From: Nanobdellota archaeon
GTDB lineage: Archaea > Nanobdellota > Nanobdellia > Parvarchaeales > Parvarchaeaceae
Assembly (NCBI GenBank): GCA_021810345.1
Contig: JAJZIX010000001.1
Location: 7,847 to 71,846, forward strand
Direction: 5' to 3'
DNA: 64,000 bases
The position numbers and the translations under genes were made by a program. This document shows positions 26,620-60,821 of the stretch, one piece after another; positions within the stretch are counted from its first letter, which is position 1, and each line of letters begins with the position of its first letter. The notes beneath the pieces were generated by a model, which worked only from the letters and a program-made list of their open reading frames with translations, searched no databases and was not told the origin of the DNA.

Positions 26620-26702
26620 GCAGAGGTAGCGAAGCGGTCAAACGTGTAAGGCTAAGGACCTTATGGCTCAGGCCTTCGAGGGTTCAAATCCCTCCCTCTG
26701 CA
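26620..26702 (+). tRNA. class II tRNA (long variable arm), Leu-like, apparent anticodon AAG
   Basis: Hand-folded cloverleaf. Acceptor GCAGAGG/CCTCTGC. D-stem with a G-T pair. Anticodon stem TAAGG/CCTTA. Loop CTAAGGA. 14-nt variable arm. T-arm GAGGG-TTCAAAT-CCCTC. Differs at 4 positions from the copy at 51290. May be a degenerate duplicate. Confidence 0.65.
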
Positions 26703-46014: not shown

Positions 46015-46089
46015 GGGGCGGTGATCTAGTTTGGTTATGATGCCAGCCTAGGGCGCTGGATGTCCTGGGTTCAAATCCCAGCTGCCCCA
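46015..46089 (+). tRNA. tRNA-Pro-like, apparent anticodon AGG
   Basis: Acceptor GGGGCGG/CTGCCCC. Anticodon stem CCAGC/GCTGG. Loop CTAGGGC. T-arm CTGGG-TTCAAAT-CCCAG. The A at position 34 is unusual. Confidence 0.65.
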
Positions 46090-51419: not shown

Positions 51420-52556
51420 ATGAGTCTCCCACGAAGATCCCAATCGGCATTGGAATACATGATGACGTATGGCTGGGCCATACTGGTAATCGTCATCGTC
51501 GCAGCAGTCCTGTATTCCTTAGGTATCTTCTCTCCTGCATCGTCTTTATCTCTTACAGTAACAGGATTCTCAGGTTTTGTAGGTACTCAGGCCGACTGCA
51601 CTCCATCAGGTGTATTGGTCCTATCACTCAACGATGCGCTCGGAAATCCTGTTTTCATAAAATATGCAAATTCAACATACAATGGCAAAACCTTCTCATC
51701 AAACGTTTCTGAGACTATACTCCCAGACTCTTCCGGTAAGATACTTATACTTAACGGCTGCGTCAACTCATCAAATGTTCATTTTTCATCCACAGTGACG
51801 CTGGAATACACAGAGCCCGGCCAACCCCTGCCTGGGCCTTATATAAGTACAGGTTATATCACAGGCACTACTTCCTCATTCGTACAGAATACAGTCTCAG
51901 AGTTCATTGTAAATCAAAGTCAAATATACATACCAAATTCAACTACTACTTATAATATGTGGCAGGGTGGGCCTTATACCTTGTCATCTTGGGTGAATTT
52001 GACATCTGATACTGCATCATGTCAGCATTATCCTTGTGTAGCTCTTATCCAGGTTGAATTTGGCTGCACATCCGGCGTACAAGACTTCGCGGCAAATTCA
52101 AGTGGTTTTTGGACAAATGAATTAGAGTGGAATGTCACTCACACCTCGTGTACATCCGGTCAGACATCTCCATCAATTTTCGTTCCTTTTGATAAATGGG
52201 CACTTATAACTGGAATCTTCGGGTATAATAGTTCATCCTCTAGCTATTATGTTGAAATCTGTGTGGATGCAAAATGTGATGAAAATCCTTATACTCTTGA
52301 TCATCCCGGTTACCAAGGTACAGGCGCAACGGCAATCGGTGCATACCAGTTATCTGGCAGAATAGCAAATGTCCAACTCTATAGTTTTGCACTTTCCCAT
52401 AATCAGATTCAGACAATGTATGATGAAGGATACGCAGGTATACCCCCAACTACCAATGGATTAGTGGCATGGTATCCTTTGGATGGCAACGCGAATGATT
52501 ATTCTGGTAATAATAACAATGGCGTTGCAACAAATGTTCAGTGGGTATCACCTTGA
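51420..52556 (+). CDS. type IV pilin-like/adhesin protein, class III signal peptide plus LamG-like C-terminus (paralog of 30660)
   Basis: MSLPRRSQSALEYMMTYGWAILVIVIVAAVLYSLGIFSPASS. The C-terminus LVAWYPLDGNANDYSGNNNNGVATNVQWVSP is about 85% identical at DNA level to the 3' end of 30660..31772. The middle is divergent. Confidence 0.7.
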   Translation: MSLPRRSQSALEYMMTYGWAILVIVIVAAVLYSLGIFSPASSLSLTVTGFSGFVGTQADCTPSGVLVLSLNDALGNPVFIKYANSTYNGKTFSSNVSETILPDSSGKILILNGCVNSSNVHFSSTVTLEYTEPGQPLPGPYISTGYITGTTSSFVQNTVSEFIVNQSQIYIPNSTTTYNMWQGGPYTLSSWVNLTSDTASCQHYPCVALIQVEFGCTSGVQDFAANSSGFWTNELEWNVTHTSCTSGQTSPSIFVPFDKWALITGIFGYNSSSSSYYVEICVDAKCDENPYTLDHPGYQGTGATAIGAYQLSGRIANVQLYSFALSHNQIQTMYDEGYAGIPPTTNGLVAWYPLDGNANDYSGNNNNGVATNVQWVSP

Positions 52557-53802: not shown

Positions 53803-53918
53803 GGGGTTGTAGTCTAATCCGGCAGAATAGGCGGCTCCAGTTTATCTGGAAACATGACTCTAAACGGGGGATGATTAGAAGAAACCGCTTGATCCAGGTT
53901 CAAATCCTGGCAACCCCA
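53803..53918 (+). tRNA. tRNA-Trp (anticodon CCA) with an intron of about 43 nt after position 37
   Basis: Acceptor GGGGTTG/CAACCCC. Anticodon stem GGCGG/CCGCT. Loop CTCCAG|intron|A. T-arm CCAGG-TTCAAAT-CCTGG. The intron TTTATCTGGAAACATGACTCTAAACGGGGGATGATTAGAAGAA contains a GATGA (C-box-like) motif. Confidence 0.75.
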
Positions 53919-54029
53919 CAGATTATATGGGGCATAGTATATCTCTCTCTTAATTTCACTCCTGCCCCAGTATATACACAAAAGTATATACCTTCAATAA
54001 TTCATGCCCAAATCATCTAAAATCAATAT

Positions 54030-54176
54030 CTAATTGGTACAGGTTTCATCTGGTATCAGCTCTACCACCATGAAATCGATTGGGTTAAGTCCAGCTGCCT
54101 TTACTTTTATTGTTACTTGTCCTGGACCGGCTTTCGGCTTGTCTGTCTCCTTGAGGTTTAAGTTATCTATCCATTC
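54030..54176 (-). pseudogene. N-terminal fragment of a zinc-type alcohol dehydrogenase/quinone oxidoreductase (MDR family), no start codon
   Basis: Minus-strand translation EWIDNLNLKETDKPKAGPGQVTIKVKAAGLNPIDFMVVELIPDETCTN* carries the PGPGEVLIKVKAAGLNPVD MDR N-terminal motif. In-frame stops lie immediately upstream. Confidence 0.45.
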
Positions 54177-54437
54177 TTACTAAGAATCCACGCTTTCATA
54201 TAGTATTATTTTACTAGCGATATAAACGCTTTCTTAAGTTTATATTAGTTTAAAACTTCAAATCGCAGTAAACTAGAAAGACGACTCTTACTGACTGAGT
54301 ATGATTAAAGTTATATAGGTTTATAATATATAAACGAAAATCTTTATATTACGTAATAGCTGATAAAAAAAGTAGGGTTTTAGCTTCAATTAAAGCTAAT
54401 AACAAGTGAAAGTAGTTTTTTTTATCAAGTAGAATAT

Positions 54438-55001
54438 ATGGACAACCTAAAATATACAAAAATCGAAAGGGCAGATAACAAAAAGGTTGCAGTATTTGAT
54501 TGTGATGACACTCTCTTTTTTACAGGAGATTCACTTAGATTAGCTTCAAAAGAAGTATTTAACCGAGATTTAACAAGGCTTCAGATTAAAAAATTACCGC
54601 CAAATATAAGAGCTAATCTATTTATCACTGCTAGTAAAAAATATCATACAGCGTACAAACCAAATAAATTGACTATAGATAAATGTAAGATACTTAAATC
54701 AAAAGGATATGATATCATAGTGTTAACTACTCGTTGGAATACTCTCAGAAAATATACCTTAAAAATCTTATCTAATAACAATATACCTTTCAAAAAACTG
54801 ATTTTGGATAGGAATGGGAGTACAGACGGAGAAAAATTTAAAATACACTACATAAAATCTTTGTTATCAAAATACAAGCAAGTCATTTTTTTTGATGACT
54901 CAATAGAAATTATGCGTAAAGTTGAAAGGTTAAATTCATTAAAAAGGGTGTCACTATATTTAGTTAGCCCAACGCGCATACGTCTATATAGAGCAGGATA
55001 A
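54438..55001 (+). CDS. HAD-superfamily phosphatase-like protein
   Basis: VAVFDCDDTLFF is the DxDxT motif I. Lys-rich, AT-rich gene at the left end of the island. Confidence 0.55.
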   Translation: MDNLKYTKIERADNKKVAVFDCDDTLFFTGDSLRLASKEVFNRDLTRLQIKKLPPNIRANLFITASKKYHTAYKPNKLTIDKCKILKSKGYDIIVLTTRWNTLRKYTLKILSNNNIPFKKLILDRNGSTDGEKFKIHYIKSLLSKYKQVIFFDDSIEIMRKVERLNSLKRVSLYLVSPTRIRLYRAG

Positions 55002-55004
55002 TCT

Positions 55005-56081
55005 TTAAATCGCTGCTCTTTTATAAAAATTTTCGAGATTAATACAATTTTCTTTTATGTTGAAGTGTTCCTTGATTACTTCCCGTGCAGAAATACCGAA
55101 TTTTGAGTAATCTGATAAAACATCTCTTATCCCTTGAGATAGCGCTGAGCTACTCTTAGCTTCTACAGTTACACCCCCACCAAACTTTAATGCTTCTTTC
55201 ATTCCTCCTTGATCTGTTGTAACAACTCCCAAACCACAAGCCATCGCTTCTAACATGCTGGTAAGGACACCTTCTCTCGAATAGGATGGGAATACTCCTA
55301 TCTTAGAACGTGAGTAAATTCTTGGAAGGTCTTTAAAGTTGACATAACCTAAAAAATCAATATTGACTTTTAATTTTTTTGACAAAGCATAAAGTCTTTC
55401 CTTCTCTGGACCCTCTCCAGCAATGGCAAGTTTTAGGTCACTCCCTCGTATTGCTTTAATAAGGTAATCTAGCCCCTTTATTTTTATTAGCCTACCTACG
55501 AATACCAAATCATAAATTTTTTTTGTTTTTACCGGTTTAAAAAAATCTGTTGTTATCCCATTGTGTATAACCTTCTTTATTTTATAAGCAAATTCGGGAA
55601 AAAGAGACTGCCATTTAGTTTTGACCTCGGAGCTGACAGATAATATCTTCCTAGCCCTTCCAAGCCCTATTACAGCTCGTTCTACTCTATTATCCGGGTA
55701 ACCATGTAAATGCAGAATAATGTTCTTATTATCAAGTACGATGTGGTCATTAGAGTAGTGGGATATTATAACATCTGGGTTTATTTTTTTTATAGTCTCT
55801 ACCGAGTCGAGTTGCATCATAAGAGATTCAGAGTCCCAAGCTTCCAGTGGAATTCTTGCACCCGCGTGGTAAACCCGGTCCAAAGACTTGATCCTGGAAA
55901 AGATTACTTTAACATTGGCATCTTTTAGTAATTTTAAATATTCAGAAGGTTTTGACGGTTTTGTGGTAATCAAAGTAACGTCATTTCCCAATTTGGACAA
56001 TTCCGCCATCTGATACACAGGTACAATCTCTCCACCCCCTATATAGTAAGATATCCTAGGCTGAACTACAAGTATTTTCAT
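55005..56081 (-). CDS. glycosyltransferase family 4 (GT-B, retaining)
   Basis: C-terminal REGVLTSMLEAMACGLGVVTTDQGG resembles the GT4 EX7E-region motif (EGFGLVLLEAMACGLPVV). Confidence 0.75.
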   Translation of the reverse strand: MKILVVQPRISYYIGGGEIVPVYQMAELSKLGNDVTLITTKPSKPSEYLKLLKDANVKVIFSRIKSLDRVYHAGARIPLEAWDSESLMMQLDSVETIKKINPDVIISHYSNDHIVLDNKNIILHLHGYPDNRVERAVIGLGRARKILSVSSEVKTKWQSLFPEFAYKIKKVIHNGITTDFFKPVKTKKIYDLVFVGRLIKIKGLDYLIKAIRGSDLKLAIAGEGPEKERLYALSKKLKVNIDFLGYVNFKDLPRIYSRSKIGVFPSYSREGVLTSMLEAMACGLGVVTTDQGGMKEALKFGGGVTVEAKSSSALSQGIRDVLSDYSKFGISAREVIKEHFNIKENCINLENFYKRAAI

Positions 56082-56135
56082 ATCTAAATAATACTCATTT
56101 AATGTATAAATTTACTTACTTCCTAATAATCCGAT

Positions 56136-57290
56136 ATGGAAACCGGGGAAATTATTCCTACAGAGGGAAATGGTGTCGTTGGCATTATACTAATAAATGG
56201 GAAGCTCTTAATTGATCTTAGAAACATGAGCAATCAGATGCACCTATGGGAGTTTCCGGGTGGAGGAATAGAGAAGGGAGAAACCGCAGCATCCACATTG
56301 AAAAGAGAGATAGAGGAAGAAGTTGGAATAAAAGTTAAAAAGATGGAATGGTTGGGTGTAAAAAACCAAGCTGTCCACTGGGGCCATACTGAGTTTGAGC
56401 ATTATTTTTTAATTACCGAGATAGAGGGTCAACCTTTTCCTAATTCCCCAAGAGAAGTTAAAGAAGTCAGGTGGGTATACCCAGAAGAACTAAAAGAGAT
56501 ACTAAATTTAGGGTGGAGAGTTACAGACGGCATGTTCTTATTAACCCGTAAGTTAGACAAATATAAAGAAGTATATTCCTCGCTTAAAGATAGAGATCAA
56601 AGACCTGAATTAGGTTTTGAATATTTTGCGTATTCTGAAACCGTTAAAACAGGGCGGAAAAAAGAAAAACTGAATCAGCAACAGGTTTTTCATGAGGAAG
56701 AAACTGAGCTTAAAAAAATACTTTCAAAAAGAAAAGGTCGATTTTTAGAGATTGGGCCTGGATATGGGCGGTTAACCGAAATAATACTGAAGAAAGCCAA
56801 AACCATAGATTTATTGGAAGTTAACCCAGATTTTAGGGCACTACTTATTAAGAGATTTGGTCATAGGGTGAATTTTCTAGAGGGTGTTGCAGAGAAATTT
56901 AGAGCCGATAAAAAATACAATACGATTCTATGCGCCGAAACAATCGAGAATATAAAAGATATTTATGCCTTTGTTGCAAATGTAAGATTCGCTCTTTCGA
57001 AAGGGGGAGTTTTTATCTTGACGTTGGATAATACAGAATCTTCATCGAAGATAAACAGAGATAATTTCAGAAAATTATATGGAGCAAGTACTACGGGGCA
57101 TTACAGAAAAATTACTTTAAAATCTCTATCTAACTTACTCAGAGACTCGGGGTTTAAATTTAGTATTAACGAAATAGGTCATAAATATGTACCGTTGCCA
57201 GCGAGACAAAGGAAACTACTGATTCCAAAACCGAAAAACAAAAAAGATACTTATGTGTTCTTGATCACTTGTACCGTCTATGAAGAATAA
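56136..57290 (+). CDS. bifunctional Nudix hydrolase / SAM-dependent methyltransferase fusion
   Basis: Perfect Nudix box GGGIEKGETAASTLKREIEEEVGI (GX5EX7REUXEEXGU) at residues ~40-65. Class I MTase motif LEIGPGYGRLTEIIL at about residue 205. Confidence 0.65.
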   Translation: METGEIIPTEGNGVVGIILINGKLLIDLRNMSNQMHLWEFPGGGIEKGETAASTLKREIEEEVGIKVKKMEWLGVKNQAVHWGHTEFEHYFLITEIEGQPFPNSPREVKEVRWVYPEELKEILNLGWRVTDGMFLLTRKLDKYKEVYSSLKDRDQRPELGFEYFAYSETVKTGRKKEKLNQQQVFHEEETELKKILSKRKGRFLEIGPGYGRLTEIILKKAKTIDLLEVNPDFRALLIKRFGHRVNFLEGVAEKFRADKKYNTILCAETIENIKDIYAFVANVRFALSKGGVFILTLDNTESSSKINRDNFRKLYGASTTGHYRKITLKSLSNLLRDSGFKFSINEIGHKYVPLPARQRKLLIPKPKNKKDTYVFLITCTVYEE

Positions 57291-58194
57291 ATTGAGTGTA
57301 ATAATAAGTACTTATAAGCACGGCGCGAAACTTTTTTCATTATTAGATTACCTTAATAATCTAAATTTAGACGAAATAGTGGTTATAGATGATCATAGTA
57401 ATAGAGGGGGAGAGATAATAAACAAGCTTAAGAGTTTAAATATAAAATCAAGACTTATAGTAACTAAAAAACCGTACGGTCCGTGGGCAACTAAAAGCAT
57501 TGGAATAAAGGTCGCTAAAAATGATTATATCTTGCATCTGGATGGTGATTGTGAACCTGTAGACAGCGATATAATATCAAACCATTTAAAATGGTTAAAA
57601 AAAGGTTACATATTTGTTTTTGGTAATATACTATTTAAAGAGAAAGACATTTTAACAAATGCATTCTATGTAAGATACTGTCTTTCATCAAGTAAATATT
57701 TTCTAGAGGAACCTAAAGAATTCGATTCCCAAAATATAATAGCCATAACTGGAAATAATTTTTCATTGAATAGAAAAATGCTCTATACTAAAGATATCCC
57801 GAACTTAGGTTTGTATGGTGGGGATGACCTGTATTTTACTACATTAAATATGAGAAAAACGGGTAAAAAGGCGATTTTTGACCCAACTATATTTGTAAAA
57901 CATAAACATGTTTTATCATTACGCAAGCTGATTAATAAGTACTACACTTACGCAGTCGGGAGCGGGGTAAATAGGCGGTTTTTCGGAAAGTTAGGTGACT
58001 ATTACACTGAACCACTCATGAAGATATACTTTTCAAGAATACCCATAGCACTTAATAAATTTGGTTTATATCCGGCTCTTCTGTTTTTTATTTTGTATCC
58101 ATTATACACGGTCGTAACCATACCTGGTTTCATACGCGGATTTACTTTAAAGATAAATAAAATAAAAATAGATTACAAAGAGATAAAAGTTTGA
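57280..58194 (+). CDS. glycosyltransferase family 2
   Basis: LSVIISTYKHG and HLDGDCEP (DxD) motifs. C-terminal hydrophobic segment. Confidence 0.7.
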   Translation: MKNKLSVIISTYKHGAKLFSLLDYLNNLNLDEIVVIDDHSNRGGEIINKLKSLNIKSRLIVTKKPYGPWATKSIGIKVAKNDYILHLDGDCEPVDSDIISNHLKWLKKGYIFVFGNILFKEKDILTNAFYVRYCLSSSKYFLEEPKEFDSQNIIAITGNNFSLNRKMLYTKDIPNLGLYGGDDLYFTTLNMRKTGKKAIFDPTIFVKHKHVLSLRKLINKYYTYAVGSGVNRRFFGKLGDYYTEPLMKIYFSRIPIALNKFGLYPALLFFILYPLYTVVTIPGFIRGFTLKINKIKIDYKEIKV

Positions 58195-58235
58195 TACCTT
58201 AAAGGTTTATATAATACCTGCTATCATACATAAAT

Positions 58236-59099
58236 ATGCCCGGCTCGTATTACGTACGAACAAAGCGAGGGGATGTCCACATAAAAGACGACATAAACAT
58301 AGAAAATGTCTTCCTGCGAATACCTGGCGTAGTATCTGTAAACCATTCTGATACCTTAGAGGACGTATTAGATAGGTATTCTGATGTTTCTGGTTTAGAT
58401 AAAGAGGATTTATCGTACAAAATGACGCCAAAGGATCGTATAGCTCTTGCTGAAATTATTCTAGAATTTTGCGGCGAAACTGAAGGAGTTTATACTATGG
58501 AAGGCGCGGCCATAATAAAAGATAATAAATGTGTTATTCTACAAGGGGACAGCTTAGCGGGTAAGAGCAGAACTGCATATGAGCTTAAGAAATCCTATTC
58601 TATAGGCGGAGATGATAGCGTTCTGCTTAGAATTTTCGGCCAAAAATTAGAATTCGTGGGGGGAAATAGACACTCTGCCCCCAAATTTTGGCATGATAAC
58701 AAAGAATATACTGACTTCGGTGAAAATGCCGTAGCCGACTCAGAGGTGGTTGCTGTAATAAAGTTGAAAACAGTTTATACTCCCAATTCGGATAAATATA
58801 TATTACAGAAATTATCGCCAGATAACCTGCAATTCCTACTATGGTCATGGGTTTCGTCTAAGAGTAGGAGTGTTGGTAGCTATTTGAAGGATATGGAATA
58901 TCCTTTACCTTCCTTAGATACAAATGAATTATCTAAAAAAAGGTTAAATTTTTGTAAGGAAGCGAGCTACGTTCCGTTCTATTTTTATGAAGGCGGGGTC
59001 GAAAACTTATCATCAATAATCTCAATGTTAATAAAAGATGCGGATCACATAAAGGAAGCGGCATATGCCGTAAATTATAAAGATTCTCGGTTAAAGTAA
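58236..59099 (+). CDS. HprK-like P-loop kinase domain protein
   Basis: GAAIIKDNKCVILQGDSLAGKSRTAYELKKSYSIGGDDSVLL parallels the HPr kinase C-terminal domain (HGvLVdv.GvGVLItGdSGvGKSEtALELI.rGhrLVADD.V.I). Confidence 0.5.
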   Translation: MPGSYYVRTKRGDVHIKDDINIENVFLRIPGVVSVNHSDTLEDVLDRYSDVSGLDKEDLSYKMTPKDRIALAEIILEFCGETEGVYTMEGAAIIKDNKCVILQGDSLAGKSRTAYELKKSYSIGGDDSVLLRIFGQKLEFVGGNRHSAPKFWHDNKEYTDFGENAVADSEVVAVIKLKTVYTPNSDKYILQKLSPDNLQFLLWSWVSSKSRSVGSYLKDMEYPLPSLDTNELSKKRLNFCKEASYVPFYFYEGGVENLSSIISMLIKDADHIKEAAYAVNYKDSRLK

Positions 59100-59996
59100 T
59101 TTCTCAATTTCATTGCATATAAACTTCATGCTCCCTTTTATCTGTACTATTGGGATACTTTTTGCGATCTTTCTAGCCAAGCCGATTCGCTTAACAGATA
59201 AATCTATAGTATCTAGTGAACTTAACGGTCTTTTGAACCCGTCTATATAACAACTGTAAAGCCCCCGTATTTCTATACTTAAAAGCTCATACATATGAAA
59301 GATGGATTTTTTACTATTTCCCCAAATTATTTTAACATTATTACCCGTGATCTGTGGGTATACAAATGCAGCTATCCTTGGTTTTTCTTCCATACTATCT
59401 TGATTTAATCCTTTCATATCCTCGTAAATCTTGTAGTGCTCCTTTATGTAAGGCGAAATTTCTTCCATAATTTTGATTTTTCCGACTATATTAGCATTTC
59501 TATCGATAGTTGCTTGACCGTCGGATACAAAATTGAATTTATTATTTTTTACGAGGCTTATGGCGGTACTGCTTTTTCCAGTATCTTTCCAACCAAACAG
59601 GAAAATCGCTTTTCCCTCTCTGCTCACAGCGCTACCGTGTATGCTATACATCATTGATTCTTGTTTTTTGCGCTCGAGTAGGTGTTTTGCTATCGAAATT
59701 ATGTCTTTTGGTTTATTGCCAGTATACTCTGATTTTGGATAGTTTTCCTTCAAGTGAAATTTATTAGATCGATTAACAAAAACATAAGGATATTTTTTAT
59801 TTACATTGTTAATAGAAGGAGAAGTTACAATTTTTTTTATTAATTTATCATTTAGAGTTTTTAATACCAGTTTTCTGTCACCAATTATGTTTATACCAAC
59901 ACCACAACTCTCTAAAGCCAAACTGGCTTTATCTTTAGTATATAAGGCTTTTGTTACGGCCTTTACATCTTTTTCAAAACTAGCATACCAATTCAT
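59091..59996 (-). CDS. HprK-like P-loop kinase domain protein (paralog, convergent with 58236)
   Basis: IHGSAVSREGKAIFLFGWKDTGKSSTAISLVKNNKFNFVSDGQATI has the same HprK-like Walker A plus downstream acidic motif. Confidence 0.5.
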   Translation of the reverse strand: MNWYASFEKDVKAVTKALYTKDKASLALESCGVGINIIGDRKLVLKTLNDKLIKKIVTSPSINNVNKKYPYVFVNRSNKFHLKENYPKSEYTGNKPKDIISIAKHLLERKKQESMMYSIHGSAVSREGKAIFLFGWKDTGKSSTAISLVKNNKFNFVSDGQATIDRNANIVGKIKIMEEISPYIKEHYKIYEDMKGLNQDSMEEKPRIAAFVYPQITGNNVKIIWGNSKKSIFHMYELLSIEIRGLYSCYIDGFKRPLSSLDTIDLSVKRIGLARKIAKSIPIVQIKGSMKFICNEIEKLL

Positions 59997-60008
59997 ACCA
60001 TGTTAAAA

Positions 60009-60082
60009 TGGGCCCGACGGGATTTGAACCCGCAACACTCTGGTTAAGAGCCAGATGCTCTACCGTGTTGAGCTACGAGCCC
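60009..60082 (-). tRNA. tRNA-Lys (anticodon CTT)
   Basis: Reverse complement folds with acceptor GGGCTCG/CGGGCCC, D-stem GCTC/GAGC, anticodon stem TCTGG/CCAGA, loop CTCTTAA and T-arm GCGGG-TTCAAAT-CCCGT. Confidence 0.75.
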
Positions 60083-60162
60083 ACTATTTACTTATGCTAT
60101 TATGAATAACTCTTGCTTTATTTAAGCTATTAGTTCGGTATATTGGCTGGGGTAAAAATAGA

Positions 60163-60696
60163 TTAACTACGGGTATATCTTTTGATTTCTCCCTTGTTGA
60201 TATAGTAAAATTCAATTTTTTTGGGTTCTATACTGCTCAATATATAATCTATGTTTTCTTTTTTGTCTTCCAAAGCTACCAAATTTGAGTATCTACCCAA
60301 TAATTTGTTGAATTCATCAAGCTTCCACTTTTCATCACTGGTAGAGTGATCCTTTGGCAGTATCACATCCTTATACTTTATTCCAACGGAAGATAACATT
60401 CTCTCGGTAATCAACCTGTGCTCTTCCCCTTTAGCACTCAGTATTATTATGTCGTATCCTGAGGACTGCATAGTCTTGATGTAATTTATTACGGCAGTGT
60501 TTGGCACGGCTTTATCCCAATATTTGTCATGAGCGAGGTAGTACACCTTCCTTTTTGTTTCCTTGTCTTTTTTCTTGACTTCTTCCAAATCCATCTGCTT
60601 CCCTAATATTTCCAGAGACGCGGCCCTTATGCAGTCATTTATTAAAAAAAGCGTATCATCAAAATCAGACACTACCGCAGAAAGTTTAGTTTTCAC
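60163..60696 (-). CDS. HAD-superfamily phosphatase-like protein (distant paralog of 54438)
   Basis: AVVSDFDDTLF is the DxDxT motif. About 177 aa. Similar domain layout to the protein at 54438. Confidence 0.55.
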   Translation of the reverse strand: MKTKLSAVVSDFDDTLFLINDCIRAASLEILGKQMDLEEVKKKDKETKRKVYYLAHDKYWDKAVPNTAVINYIKTMQSSGYDIIILSAKGEEHRLITERMLSSVGIKYKDVILPKDHSTSDEKWKLDEFNKLLGRYSNLVALEDKKENIDYILSSIEPKKIEFYYINKGEIKRYTRS

Positions 60697-60748
60697 AGTT
60701 CTCTAAGGTCAGAATTATTTAAATACTTTGCCGCCTTTACTTCATGAT

Positions 60749-60821
60749 GGGCCTATGGTCTAGTGGTTATGACGTCTGCCTTACACGCAGAAAGCCGGGA
60801 GTTCGAACCTCCCTGGGCCCA
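60749..60821 (+). tRNA. tRNA-Val (anticodon TAC)
   Basis: Acceptor GGGCCTA/TGGGCCC. Anticodon stem TCTGC/GCAGA. Loop CTTACAC. Otherwise near-identical to the tRNA-Val(GAC) at 37786. Confidence 0.8.

Follow-up and report, generated by a model that had tools for sequence, protein, structure and literature searches.

The subject of this report is a pair of convergent genes, here called K1 and K2, in a 64,000-nucleotide stretch of DNA from a Nanobdellota archaeon of the family Parvarchaeaceae (contig JAJZIX010000001.1); this whole stretch is referred to below as ‘the window’. K1 and K2 encode soluble two-domain P-loop phosphotransferases that constitute a distinct branch of the superfamily to which phosphoenolpyruvate carboxykinase (PEPCK) and HPr kinase/phosphorylase (HprK/P) belong, and we refer to them as mini-PEPCK/HprK-like kinases. 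They are found together with glycosyltransferases of families 4 and 2 (GT4 and GT2), a MutT-like Nudix protein fused to a methyltransferase, and phosphatases of the haloacid dehalogenase (HAD) type. Because the same neighbors recur around kinases of this kind elsewhere, we can say that all of the genes between positions 54438 and 60696 (Table 1) are parts of one conserved, mostly soluble module. The superfamily is a known one and so is its chemistry; the architecture of the kinase is new, as is the conserved module that surrounds it.

Both kinase open reading frames (ORFs) are intact. K1 is the final gene of a plus-strand run consisting of Nudix-methyltransferase, GT2 and K1, and K2 approaches it from the opposite strand. 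Downstream of the Walker A motif, K1 has the sequence GGDDS (residues 124–128) and K2 has VSDGQ (residues 157–161). An earlier note on this DNA had described two convergent ORFs with the Walker A peptides listed in Table 1, overlapping tail to tail by 9 nt, and all of this is as described. It had also called the two proteins paralogs, as indeed they are, because BLASTP aligns them with 23% identity over 217 aa at E=5e-9. The convergent arrangement is found, with overlaps of 4–7 nt, in five further loci (L002, L003, L005, L006 and L011), and six distinct loci in all, counting the window, retain an overlap of 4–9 nt. Orthologs of K1 share 69% identity with it in L002 and L011, 52% in L006, 44% in L003 and 34% in L048. 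Outside of its own clade, K1 finds its best matches in P0097 (34%) and P0051 (32%); since these exceed its identity to K2 (23%), K1 is not a recent copy of K2. The K1 gene is missing from L001/L009 and from L010, where the gap between K2 and GT2 is 92 bp. The convergent K1–K2 pair is specific to the acid-mine branch of the DPANN archaea, and is a lineage-specific elaboration of the module. Duplication of the HAD gene, like that of the kinase, is likewise a lineage-specific feature.

The placement of the kinases depends on two kinds of comparison: profile searches favor HprK/P, predicted fold favors PEPCK, and it is for this reason that we assign the proteins to a branch of their own. AlphaFold2, supplied with an alignment of 69 members of the family, yields a model of K2 with a predicted local distance difference test (pLDDT) score of 93.4 and a predicted template modeling (pTM) score of 0.89. 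When this model is compared with the Protein Data Bank (PDB) by Foldseek, ranks 1–35 are all ATP-dependent PEPCKs (E from 3e-8 to 8e-6; probability 1.0), and these matches cover both K2 domains, with TM-scores on the query of 0.41–0.53 over ~330–390 alignment columns; normalized to PEPCK, the TM-scores are ~0.3. HprK/P appears from rank 36 (E=1.8e-5; probability again 1.0) and covers far less of the query (TM-score 0.23–0.27). The N-domain of the model, too, groups with PEPCK by fold. As modeled, then, the two-domain protein as a whole appears nearer to a half-size ATP-PEPCK than to HprK/P, with an active-site sequence that is HprK-like.

Sequence comparisons bring out the HprK-like side. The 69-sequence profile, searched against PDB sequences, ranks HprK/P first (1ko7, 2e-6; 1jb1, 4e-6), in an alignment that spans the ‘SxHGxxV’ motif, the P-loop and the ‘ADD’ motif, HprK residues ~134–193; a single-sequence PDB search with K2 alone gave a chance match only. 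In Pfam, Hpr_kinase_C (PF07475) matches K2 at E=4e-4 (20.4 bits) and K1 at E=0.066 (13.2 bits), below its cut-off of 33.3 bits. Among the NCBIfam models, TIGR00679 (HprK/P) matches K2 at E=1e-4 (21.7 bits, against a cut-off of 240), HprK-related kinase B at E=5e-3 and kinase A at E=0.03. TIGR04352 and TIGR04355 give K2 16.1 and 13.6 bits, against a cut-off of 200, and K1 matches neither these two nor TIGR00679. PEPCK_ATP (PF01293) matches neither K1 nor K2 in Pfam, and the HprK N-terminal domain (PF02603) was absent from the Pfam matches of K1 and K2 and from the families reported for the 69 relatives. Scanned individually, 28 of the 69 members match Hpr_kinase_C (best 1e-7) and nine match PEPCK_ATP, weakly; 34 match each of HprK-related kinases A and B (best 2e-9 and 4e-11), 26 the HprK/P model and two the ScmC model of NCBIfam. 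The curated cut-offs for HprK/P, HprK-related A and B, ScmC and PEPCK are reached by none of the 69, nor by K1 or K2. The HprK-like similarity of the pair nevertheless exceeds chance P-loop likeness. Thus the description ‘HprK-like’, which came from the earlier note, holds at the level of the superfamily, by profile and by fold, and does not extend to HprK/P itself or to the peptide-associated HprK-related families, where the scores are below cut-off. None of the Pfam, NCBIfam and fold searches placed the proteins in an unrelated P-loop family, the outcome named beforehand as the one that would tell against the idea. Translated in all six frames, the 64-kb window shows no HPr-like His15 or Ser46 motif.

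The family is a large one. Word-indexed homolog searches returned five and two close relatives, one of them Candidatus Acidifodinimicrobium, and a query with the 69-sequence alignment returned six; an exhaustive profile search seeded with seven sequences exposed the wider family, of which 1071 representatives pass E<=1e-3 and 220 pass E<=1e-10. Its proteins have ~290 residues, nearly all of the 150 listed of the 1071 representatives falling between 250 and 330 aa. The family hidden Markov model (HMM) gives 283 bits for K2 and 190 for K1. Three residues are invariant in the 69 members, G140 and K141 of the P-loop and R270 (K2 numbering), and six are nearly so (G135, I243, R244, S260, D262 and G288). 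The members share a string of features: His-Gly, 15 residues, GxxGxGK[ST], ~15–20 residues, an acidic pair, an Arg-Gly loop, S-L-D and the invariant Arg. We define the family by a length of ~260–330 aa and by the motifs H-[GSA]-S, GxxGxGK[ST], [DN]-E, R-K-I-R-G, S-[LI]-D and R. In a motif comparison built on the family HMM, the main family reads H-[GSA]-S, GxSGxGK[TS], [SGA]-D-E-K, R-K-I-R-G and S-[LI]-D-x, then R. The K2 clade reads IHGSAV, GWK[DN]TGK[ST], SDGQ, IEIRG and SLDT, with R270 in K2; and the K1 clade reads xEGA, G[DE][ST]L[AS]GKS, GGDD (GGDEH, GGDK or GADD in relatives), SxSR and SLDT, with K1, too, having the final R. Both proteins therefore carry lineage-specific substitutions. 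K2 keeps the His and lacks the second acidic residue, at the position of the second Asp in the ‘ADD’ of HprK; K1 has Glu in place of the His and keeps both acids, as its clade mostly does. Because the substitutions are reciprocal, they suggest that K1 and K2 may catalyze different reactions or steps, or may join in a hetero-oligomer.

No model in Pfam-A (2025 copy) or NCBIfam (release 20) covers this family; the newer Pfam model ScmC has faint or weak precomputed matches to some relatives, and the names of the family's cluster members are uninformative. Full-text searches of the literature found no description of such a kinase with Nudix proteins and glycosyltransferases, or in DPANN archaea or the Candidate Phyla Radiation (CPR). 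The pathway had been put forward as possibly undescribed, and we found neither paper nor curated family for it.

The second part of the finding, the module, was established by comparison of genomes. A metagenome scan with the main-family alignment gave 29 loci, and extra loci came from look-ups of individual representatives; neighbors were labeled by Pfam on single proteins, by Pfam on 114 neighbors of 18 loci and by local iterative searches. Contexts were counted over 29 non-redundant loci, taking neighbors within 6 kb of the kinase. A GT4 gene is present in 25 of these, the other four being short contigs or having no sequence upstream of the kinase, and a MutT-like Nudix gene in 24. GT2 follows (20 loci), then methyltransferase (12), HAD phosphatase (11) and a protein resembling nucleoside-diphosphate kinase (NDK; 8). 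In 17 of the 29, GT4 is immediately upstream of the kinase and is read from the same strand, and its stop codon runs into the start of the kinase gene. Pfam applied to the 114 neighbors found NUDIX 20 times, GT4 16, GT2 12, HAD and NDK five each, and adenosine deaminase and methyltransferase three each. The conserved core is one kinase with GT4 and a MutT-like Nudix, which typically lie directly upstream. The earlier note had listed GT2, GT4, Nudix-methyltransferase and HAD genes as neighbors; they are present, and their linkage, being conserved in other genomes, is not a local accident.

Close relatives of the window's cassette, comprising HAD, GT4, Nudix-methyltransferase, GT2 and K2, with or without K1, occur in Candidatus Parvarchaeum acidophilus ARMAN-5, in two Parvarchaeota metagenome-assembled genomes (MAGs), in one Acidifodinimicrobium MAG and in several metagenome contigs. 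Their proteins are 44–79% identical to those of the window, and their flanking genes differ. Farther afield, hosts include bacteria besides ultrasmall archaea. Genes for ComM, RNase J, SpoVG and conjugation flank members of the wider family; among the contigs, one has a length of 953 kb, and several come from <0.2-µm groundwater fractions. The bacterial hosts fit a candidate assignment to CPR/Patescibacteria. In one relative, a BpsA_C/methyltransferase-like domain is fused to the kinase, and Nudix, GT4, GT2 and a dTMP-kinase-like gene follow.

Within the window the order of the genes is rearranged, such that GT4 is not next to K2; Nudix lies within 3 kb. Spacers between successive genes of the cassette are 3, 54, -11, 41, -9 and 12 nt, and a transfer RNA (tRNA) gene occupies the remaining gap.

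Table 1. Features of the cassette and its flanks (positions in the window; aa, amino acids; SAM, S-adenosylmethionine; BRE, B recognition element)
Feature	Position	Strand	Basis
Intron-containing tRNA, 116 nt, left edge of low-GC island	53803-53918	+	Rfam 44.6 bits; not reported by ARAGORN
HAD phosphatase a, DxDxT motif FDCDDT	54438-55001	+	Pfam DUF2608, LNS2, Acid_phosphat_B
GT4 glycosyltransferase	55005-56081	-	Pfam Glycos_transf_1 2e-33
MutT-like Nudix fused to class I SAM methyltransferase	56136-57290	+	Pfam NUDIX 5e-21, Methyltransf_23 3e-14
GT2 glycosyltransferase	57280-58194	+	Pfam Glycos_transf_2 5e-14
BRE/TATA-like element AAAGGTTTATATAATA, ~25 nt before K1 ATG	58198-58213	+	Read from sequence
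K1, mini-PEPCK/HprK-like kinase, divergent paralog, 287 aa	58236-59099	+	ORF list
Walker A of K1, GDSLAGKS, residues 104-111	58545-58568	+	Translation
Tail-to-tail overlap of K1 and K2 stop regions, 9 nt, TTAAAGTAA	59091-59099	both	Sequence
K2, mini-PEPCK/HprK-like kinase, paralog closer to main family, 301 aa	59091-59996	-	ORF list
Walker A of K2, GWKDTGKS, residues 135-142	59571-59594	-	Translation
tRNA-Lys(CUU), between HAD b and K2	60009-60082	-	ARAGORN; Rfam 70 bits
HAD phosphatase b, paralog of HAD a (~30% identity), upstream of tRNA-Lys and K2	60163-60696	-	Pfam
tRNA-Val, other flank of cassette	60749-60821		tRNA annotation

The window's GT4 is the ortholog of the GT4 that directly precedes the kinase in most loci; compared with the GT4s of the modules in the metagenome-derived loci L017–L045, it is 31–39% identical (mean column identity, 46%). 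The methyltransferase part of the Nudix fusion is the ortholog of free-standing methyltransferases in other loci, where Nudix and methyltransferase are either separate or fused again, and the Nudix box of the fusion, GGGIEKGETAASTLKREIEEEVGI, is complete. In L001, L002, L010 and L011, too, the cassette ends with HAD a. The BRE/TATA-like element takes up most of the 41-nt spacer between GT2 and K1, and is a putative promoter element for K1. A scan for bacterial-type promoters and terminators gave no more than background, or less, and has no bearing on an archaeon. On the minus strand, HAD b, tRNA-Lys(CUU) and K2 form a series in which 12 nt separate the 3′ end of the tRNA from the K2 start codon; K2 may be co-transcribed with the tRNA and freed by tRNA processing. 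The tRNA is probably unconnected with the kinase pathway.

The cassette differs in composition from its surroundings. Its guanine-plus-cytosine (GC) content is 0.346 (positions 54000–60700), compared with 0.442 for the rest of the window; in ARMAN-5-like relatives, the GC content of the cassette equals that of the genome, ~0.33. The low GC of the cassette in the window, the match in the relatives and the differing flanks together suggest that the window's lineage acquired the cassette horizontally from a low-GC relative, in a transfer between acid-mine DPANN lineages. No direct repeats of at least 14 nt were found flanking the island. Elsewhere in the window, ARAGORN reports tRNA-Leu(AAG) at 26620–26702 and tRNA-Pro(AGG) at 46015–46089, both on the plus strand, and the anticodon loops (CUAAGGA and CUAGGGC) agree; A34 tRNAs of these kinds are unusual in archaea.

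Several other loci have features of their own. A protein of 234–296 aa that matches nothing in Pfam or NCBIfam lies in or next to the module in four of them (L024, 5962–6804; L025, 2444–3286; L028, 2731–3621; L023, 4063–4767), and in two of the four it lies between GT2 and GT4. The GT2s of the bacterial modules (~530 aa) have a conserved N-terminal domain of ~235 residues with no Pfam match (L024, 4376–5080, and homologs), which might, as a guess from reading the sequence, be CYTH-like, of the triphosphate-tunnel fold. At L014 (255–19166), two copies of a distant relative of the kinase stand beside a HAD protein, a radical-SAM/SPASM enzyme, CTP synthase, GT4, a C39 peptidase and an ABC transporter, along with a run of small ORFs of 34–121 aa. 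This context resembles that of RiPPs, peptides that ribosomes synthesize and that are modified after translation, and is unlike the main module. L056 (3477–12120) is a bacterial conjugative element with a Nudix/HAD/GT4/kinase/methyltransferase module. Neighboring genes there encode a thymidylate-synthase-like protein of 457 aa that bears an HD-type motif at its C-terminus, another P-loop kinase and a NodU/CmcH-type carbamoyltransferase, as well as a PD-(D/E)xK nuclease and a restriction-modification system, and the locus looks like one for DNA-base hypermodification. We considered the thymidylate-synthase-like gene as a hidden component of the module and rejected it, as it is present in L056 only and absent from the other loci examined.

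What, then, might the module do? Its partner enzymes have leanings of their own. In a profile search, the best solved relatives of GT4 are BshA (4e-40), cyanobacterial sucrose-phosphate synthase (SPS; 5e-37) and MshA (2e-30), and the GT4s of lipid-linked glycans (PglH, PimA/B and PglA) come at 1e-28 and weaker. The acceptor of BshA is L-malate, and that of MshA is inositol phosphate. A simple hydropathy scan found hydrophobic segments to be missing from nearly all module proteins; GT2 of the window has one, C-terminal, at residues 261–279. No polyprenyl-phosphate (glycosyl)transferase, flippase or oligosaccharyltransferase is among the 25 most frequent neighbor families of the 18 loci. In the module Nudix, the Nudix box is complete and its ‘FPGG’ surroundings are MutT-like, and the protein's resemblance to solved structures extends to the MutT, NudG, RppH, Ap4A-hydrolase and DIPP types without clear preference. 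The HADs of the bacterial modules are like the YjjG/PynA-type nucleotidases (HAD-IA); those of the window are DxDxT proteins that match the DUF2608, LNS2 and class-B acid phosphatase models. Kinase and phosphatase genes co-occur in the module. In one bacterial genome, finally, the module is part of a bigger cluster that also encodes an epimerase/dehydratase and a polysaccharide pyruvyl transferase, together with a GDSL esterase, a processive GT2 and a GH18 protein.

The reading that we tentatively prefer, and hold to be possible rather than established, is that the kinase phosphorylates a hydroxyl on a non-protein substrate of its GT4 partner, that GT2 and the methyltransferase elaborate the product, and that HAD removes the phosphate. 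ATP would be the phosphoryl donor, or possibly pyrophosphate, which HprK/P can use; the hydroxyl could be on the GT4 acceptor, before glycosylation, or on the glycoside afterwards. GT2 and the methyltransferase would act later, on the resulting product, and the HAD phosphatase would strip a transient phosphate, after the logic of SPS and its phosphatase or of MshA plus phosphatase. The Nudix and NDK-like proteins would be concerned with upkeep of the nucleotide donor and by-product pool. We lean toward a small molecule as substrate in view of the relatives of GT4, the solubility of the proteins, the lack of lipid-carrier genes, the pairing of kinase with phosphatase, and the PEPCK-like fold, PEPCK being a small-molecule kinase.

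A number of observations weigh against this preferred reading. All characterized HprK-type catalytic domains (HprK/P and the lasso-peptide kinases) act, to our knowledge, on a serine of a protein or peptide. A phosphatase step cannot be universal, because HAD is found in only 11 of the 29 loci and belongs to differing subfamilies, HAD-IA nucleotidase-like in bacteria and DUF2608/LNS2-like in the window. Besides GT4, the steadiest partners are enzymes of nucleotide metabolism (MutT-like Nudix and NDK-like proteins, with an occasional dTMP-kinase-like protein, MazG or adenosine deaminase), and these the proposal accounts for only loosely. The polysaccharide-type cluster in the one bacterial genome favors a polymer over a small solute. 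And the preference of the GT4 profile for BshA, SPS and MshA is a ranking of E-values, not a measure of acceptor specificity.

Protein or peptide substrates are the obvious rival. K1 and K2 could be serine kinases that phosphorylate a RiPP, or a surface or secreted protein, which GT2 and GT4 then glycosylate, possibly via the phospho-serine. The closest named families by sequence (HprK/P, the RiPP-associated HprK-related kinases A and B, and ScmC) speak for this, as does the RiPP-like context of the distant relative at L014, with its two kinase copies; there are known cases of soluble GT2 and GT4 enzymes whose cytoplasmic targets are peptides or proteins; and a sequon-rich, pilin-like protein is encoded 2 kb upstream of the island. 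The latter, 378 aa long (51420–52556, plus strand), begins with a signal peptide of archaeal class III (type IV pilin-like), QSALEYMMTYGWAILVIVIV, is rich in N-x-S/T sequons, and is a possible glycosylation target, though its linkage is not conserved in relatives. We nonetheless think a protein or peptide kinase unlikely. It is Nudix and GT4 that accompany the kinase constantly, and not enzymes that modify peptides; peptidase, PqqD-like, cyclase and exporter genes are not recurrent among the 114 neighbors of the 18 loci; and the scores to the RiPP-linked families are far under their cut-offs. The RiPP version, raised by the earlier note, fares no better in the module, which has no leader peptidase, PqqD-like, radical-SAM or exporter gene, RiPP-like surroundings being confined to the distant locus L014. 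Precursor ORFs had been proposed in 58195–58235 and 59997–60162; the first is 41 nt of promoter-like DNA and the second contains the tRNA-Lys gene, and what ORFs there are consist of the tRNA read as protein and out-of-frame fragments. Because the two intervals hold the TATA-like element and the tRNA, we reject a RiPP precursor there, and the short spacers, with the tRNA in the remaining gap, leave no room for one in the rest of the cassette.

Alternatively, the pathway might center on nucleotides: Nudix would convert an NTP to an NMP, methylation, glycosylation and phosphorylation would follow, and the NDK- or dTMP-kinase-like proteins and a nucleotidase would tend the pool, in a process that might be likened to the making of hypermodified bases in phage DNA. 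The Nudix protein is MutT/NudG-like with a full Nudix box, and is fused to methyltransferase in several lineages; NDK-like proteins occur in 8 of the 29 loci, and dTMP-kinase-like, MazG, adenosine deaminase and YjjG/PynA-like HAD proteins each in single or few loci; and the conjugative element of L056 combines the thymidylate-synthase-like/HD fusion with P-loop kinase, carbamoyltransferase and restriction-modification genes. Among the loci examined, however, the thymidylate-synthase-like gene is confined to L056. The modules are chromosomal and flanked by housekeeping genes; at the sensitivity used, searches of IMG/VR, GenBank phages and PLSDB plasmids recovered no kinase relatives, and PADLOC gave no match; GT4 and GT2 enzymes that act on nucleic acids are rare; and in one genome the cluster around the module is polysaccharide-like. 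On balance we judge this pathway improbable, too. Somewhat less probable again is its cellular form, the counterpart of phage DNA hypermodification: a chromosomal pathway, common to ultrasmall bacteria and DPANN archaea, in which Nudix, methyltransferase, GT4, kinase, NDK-like and nucleotidase proteins would together yield a nucleotide or nucleic-acid base that is glycosylated or phosphorylated, and the mini-PEPCK/HprK-like protein would be a nucleotide or base kinase. L056 and the nucleotide-type partners at other loci speak for it. Nor did we find grounds for a phage or plasmid origin, given the same searches of IMG/VR, GenBank phages and PLSDB, or for a defense system, since PADLOC reported nothing for the kinases, GT4, GT2 or the HADs, and generic matches only for Nudix and methyltransferase.

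The kinase could also act as a switch in the manner of HprK/P, reversibly phosphorylating GT4 or another enzyme of the module and so gating glycan synthesis, with HAD or an intrinsic phosphorylase to reset it. The catalytic motifs are HprK-like, the GT4 stop that overlaps the kinase start in 17 loci suggests a stoichiometric complex, and the HADs of the window resemble cap-less, macromolecule-directed groups (matches of the LNS2, NIF and PNKP type). A dedicated regulator for a single glycosyltransferase, kept over hundreds of ~1-Mb genomes, would be unusual, however, and the two-domain, PEPCK-like cleft of the predicted structure suggests a small ligand; we rate such a switch as distinctly doubtful. 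Least of all do we expect the proteins to be degenerate or non-catalytic (an ATPase, scaffold or pseudokinase with a superficial likeness to kinases), and we put this down as very improbable. It is true that K2 lacks the second acid of ‘ADD’, that K1 lacks the His of His-Gly, and that curated scores are sub-threshold. But in 69 diverse members the P-loop Gly and Lys and an Arg never vary, and the Arg-Gly loop and S-x-D hardly do; the main family retains the His, both acids and the Arg; and both paralogs have been kept over several lineages, down to 34–50% identity.

Whatever its substrate, the kinase represents a new, compact branch of PEPCK/HprK proteins that curated models leave unnamed, and its tight coupling to a glycosyltransferase is undescribed for this fold. 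The module of five to eight genes has been kept across many lineages of DPANN archaea and ultrasmall bacteria. It is probably important to them, because their genomes are ~1 Mb and they depend on hosts, and yet they retain it. Identification of the substrate would provide a function for about a thousand protein clusters, and could uncover, at the interface between symbiont and host, a glycoside, glycopolymer or modified nucleotide that is new. To this the window adds a duplicated kinase with reciprocal changes in the active site, and evidence of cassette transfer between acid-mine archaeal lineages.

It is useful, in closing, to set the kinases and their module beside systems that are better known. 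With HprK/P, the top profile match among solved structures, the family shares the His-Gly strand, the P-loop GxxGxGK[ST], the acidic motif and the fold of the C-terminal domain. K1 and K2 differ in scoring below the cut-offs, in lacking the MurE-like N-terminal domain of HprK, and in having a different C-terminal half. The HprK/P consensus is GxSGxGKS with His-Gly ~15 residues upstream and Asp-Asp ~17 downstream; of this, K2 has His-Gly and the P-loop but one acid only, K1 has the P-loop and GGDD but Glu for His, and the main family has His, the P-loop and D-E. The context differs also, GT4 and Nudix instead of the phosphotransferase system (PTS) and catabolite control, in an archaeal host whose window has no HPr-like motif. 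For half of the family, the closest relatives that have a name are the HprK-related kinases A and B (TIGR04352 and TIGR04355), ScmC (TIGR04249/PF27840) and the lasso-peptide kinases, which are similarly stand-alone kinases in biosynthetic clusters, not regulators of sugar uptake. Their companions (PqqD-like proteins, radical-SAM/SPASM enzymes, lasso cyclase and peptidase, and a precursor) are absent from the window cassette and from the 25 commonest neighbor families. ATP-PEPCK (PckA, PF01293) is the best structural match to the K2 model over both domains, and the motifs of the Escherichia coli enzyme, H-x15-GxSGxGKT followed by an acidic pair, have the same layout as those of the kinase family. 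PEPCK is much the larger protein, however (~530 residues compared with ~290, at ~10% identity), and the gene context of the kinase family has nothing to do with gluconeogenesis.

Among pathways, those that make glycosides by way of a phosphorylated intermediate (SPS with its phosphatase SPP, MshA plus phosphatase, and GpgS with GpgP), and also BshA, invite comparison with the module, whose GT4 has BshA, a cyanobacterial SPS and MshA as its closest solved relatives and is accompanied by a HAD phosphatase gene. In SPS/SPP, MshA and GpgS/GpgP, it is central metabolism that supplies the acceptor in phosphorylated form, and a dedicated kinase, Nudix, GT2 or methyltransferase is lacking; the parallel is one of function only, the kinase not being homologous. 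A second parallel is provided by the lipopolysaccharide core, where WaaG, a GT4, adjoins WaaP and WaaY, kinases that phosphorylate the growing glycan. Those kinases have the eukaryotic protein-kinase fold and work on a lipid-anchored core at the membrane, whereas the module is soluble and without lipid-carrier enzymes; by analogy of function, WaaG with WaaP and WaaY may still be the counterpart to keep in mind if the mini-PEPCK/HprK-like proteins are glycan kinases.

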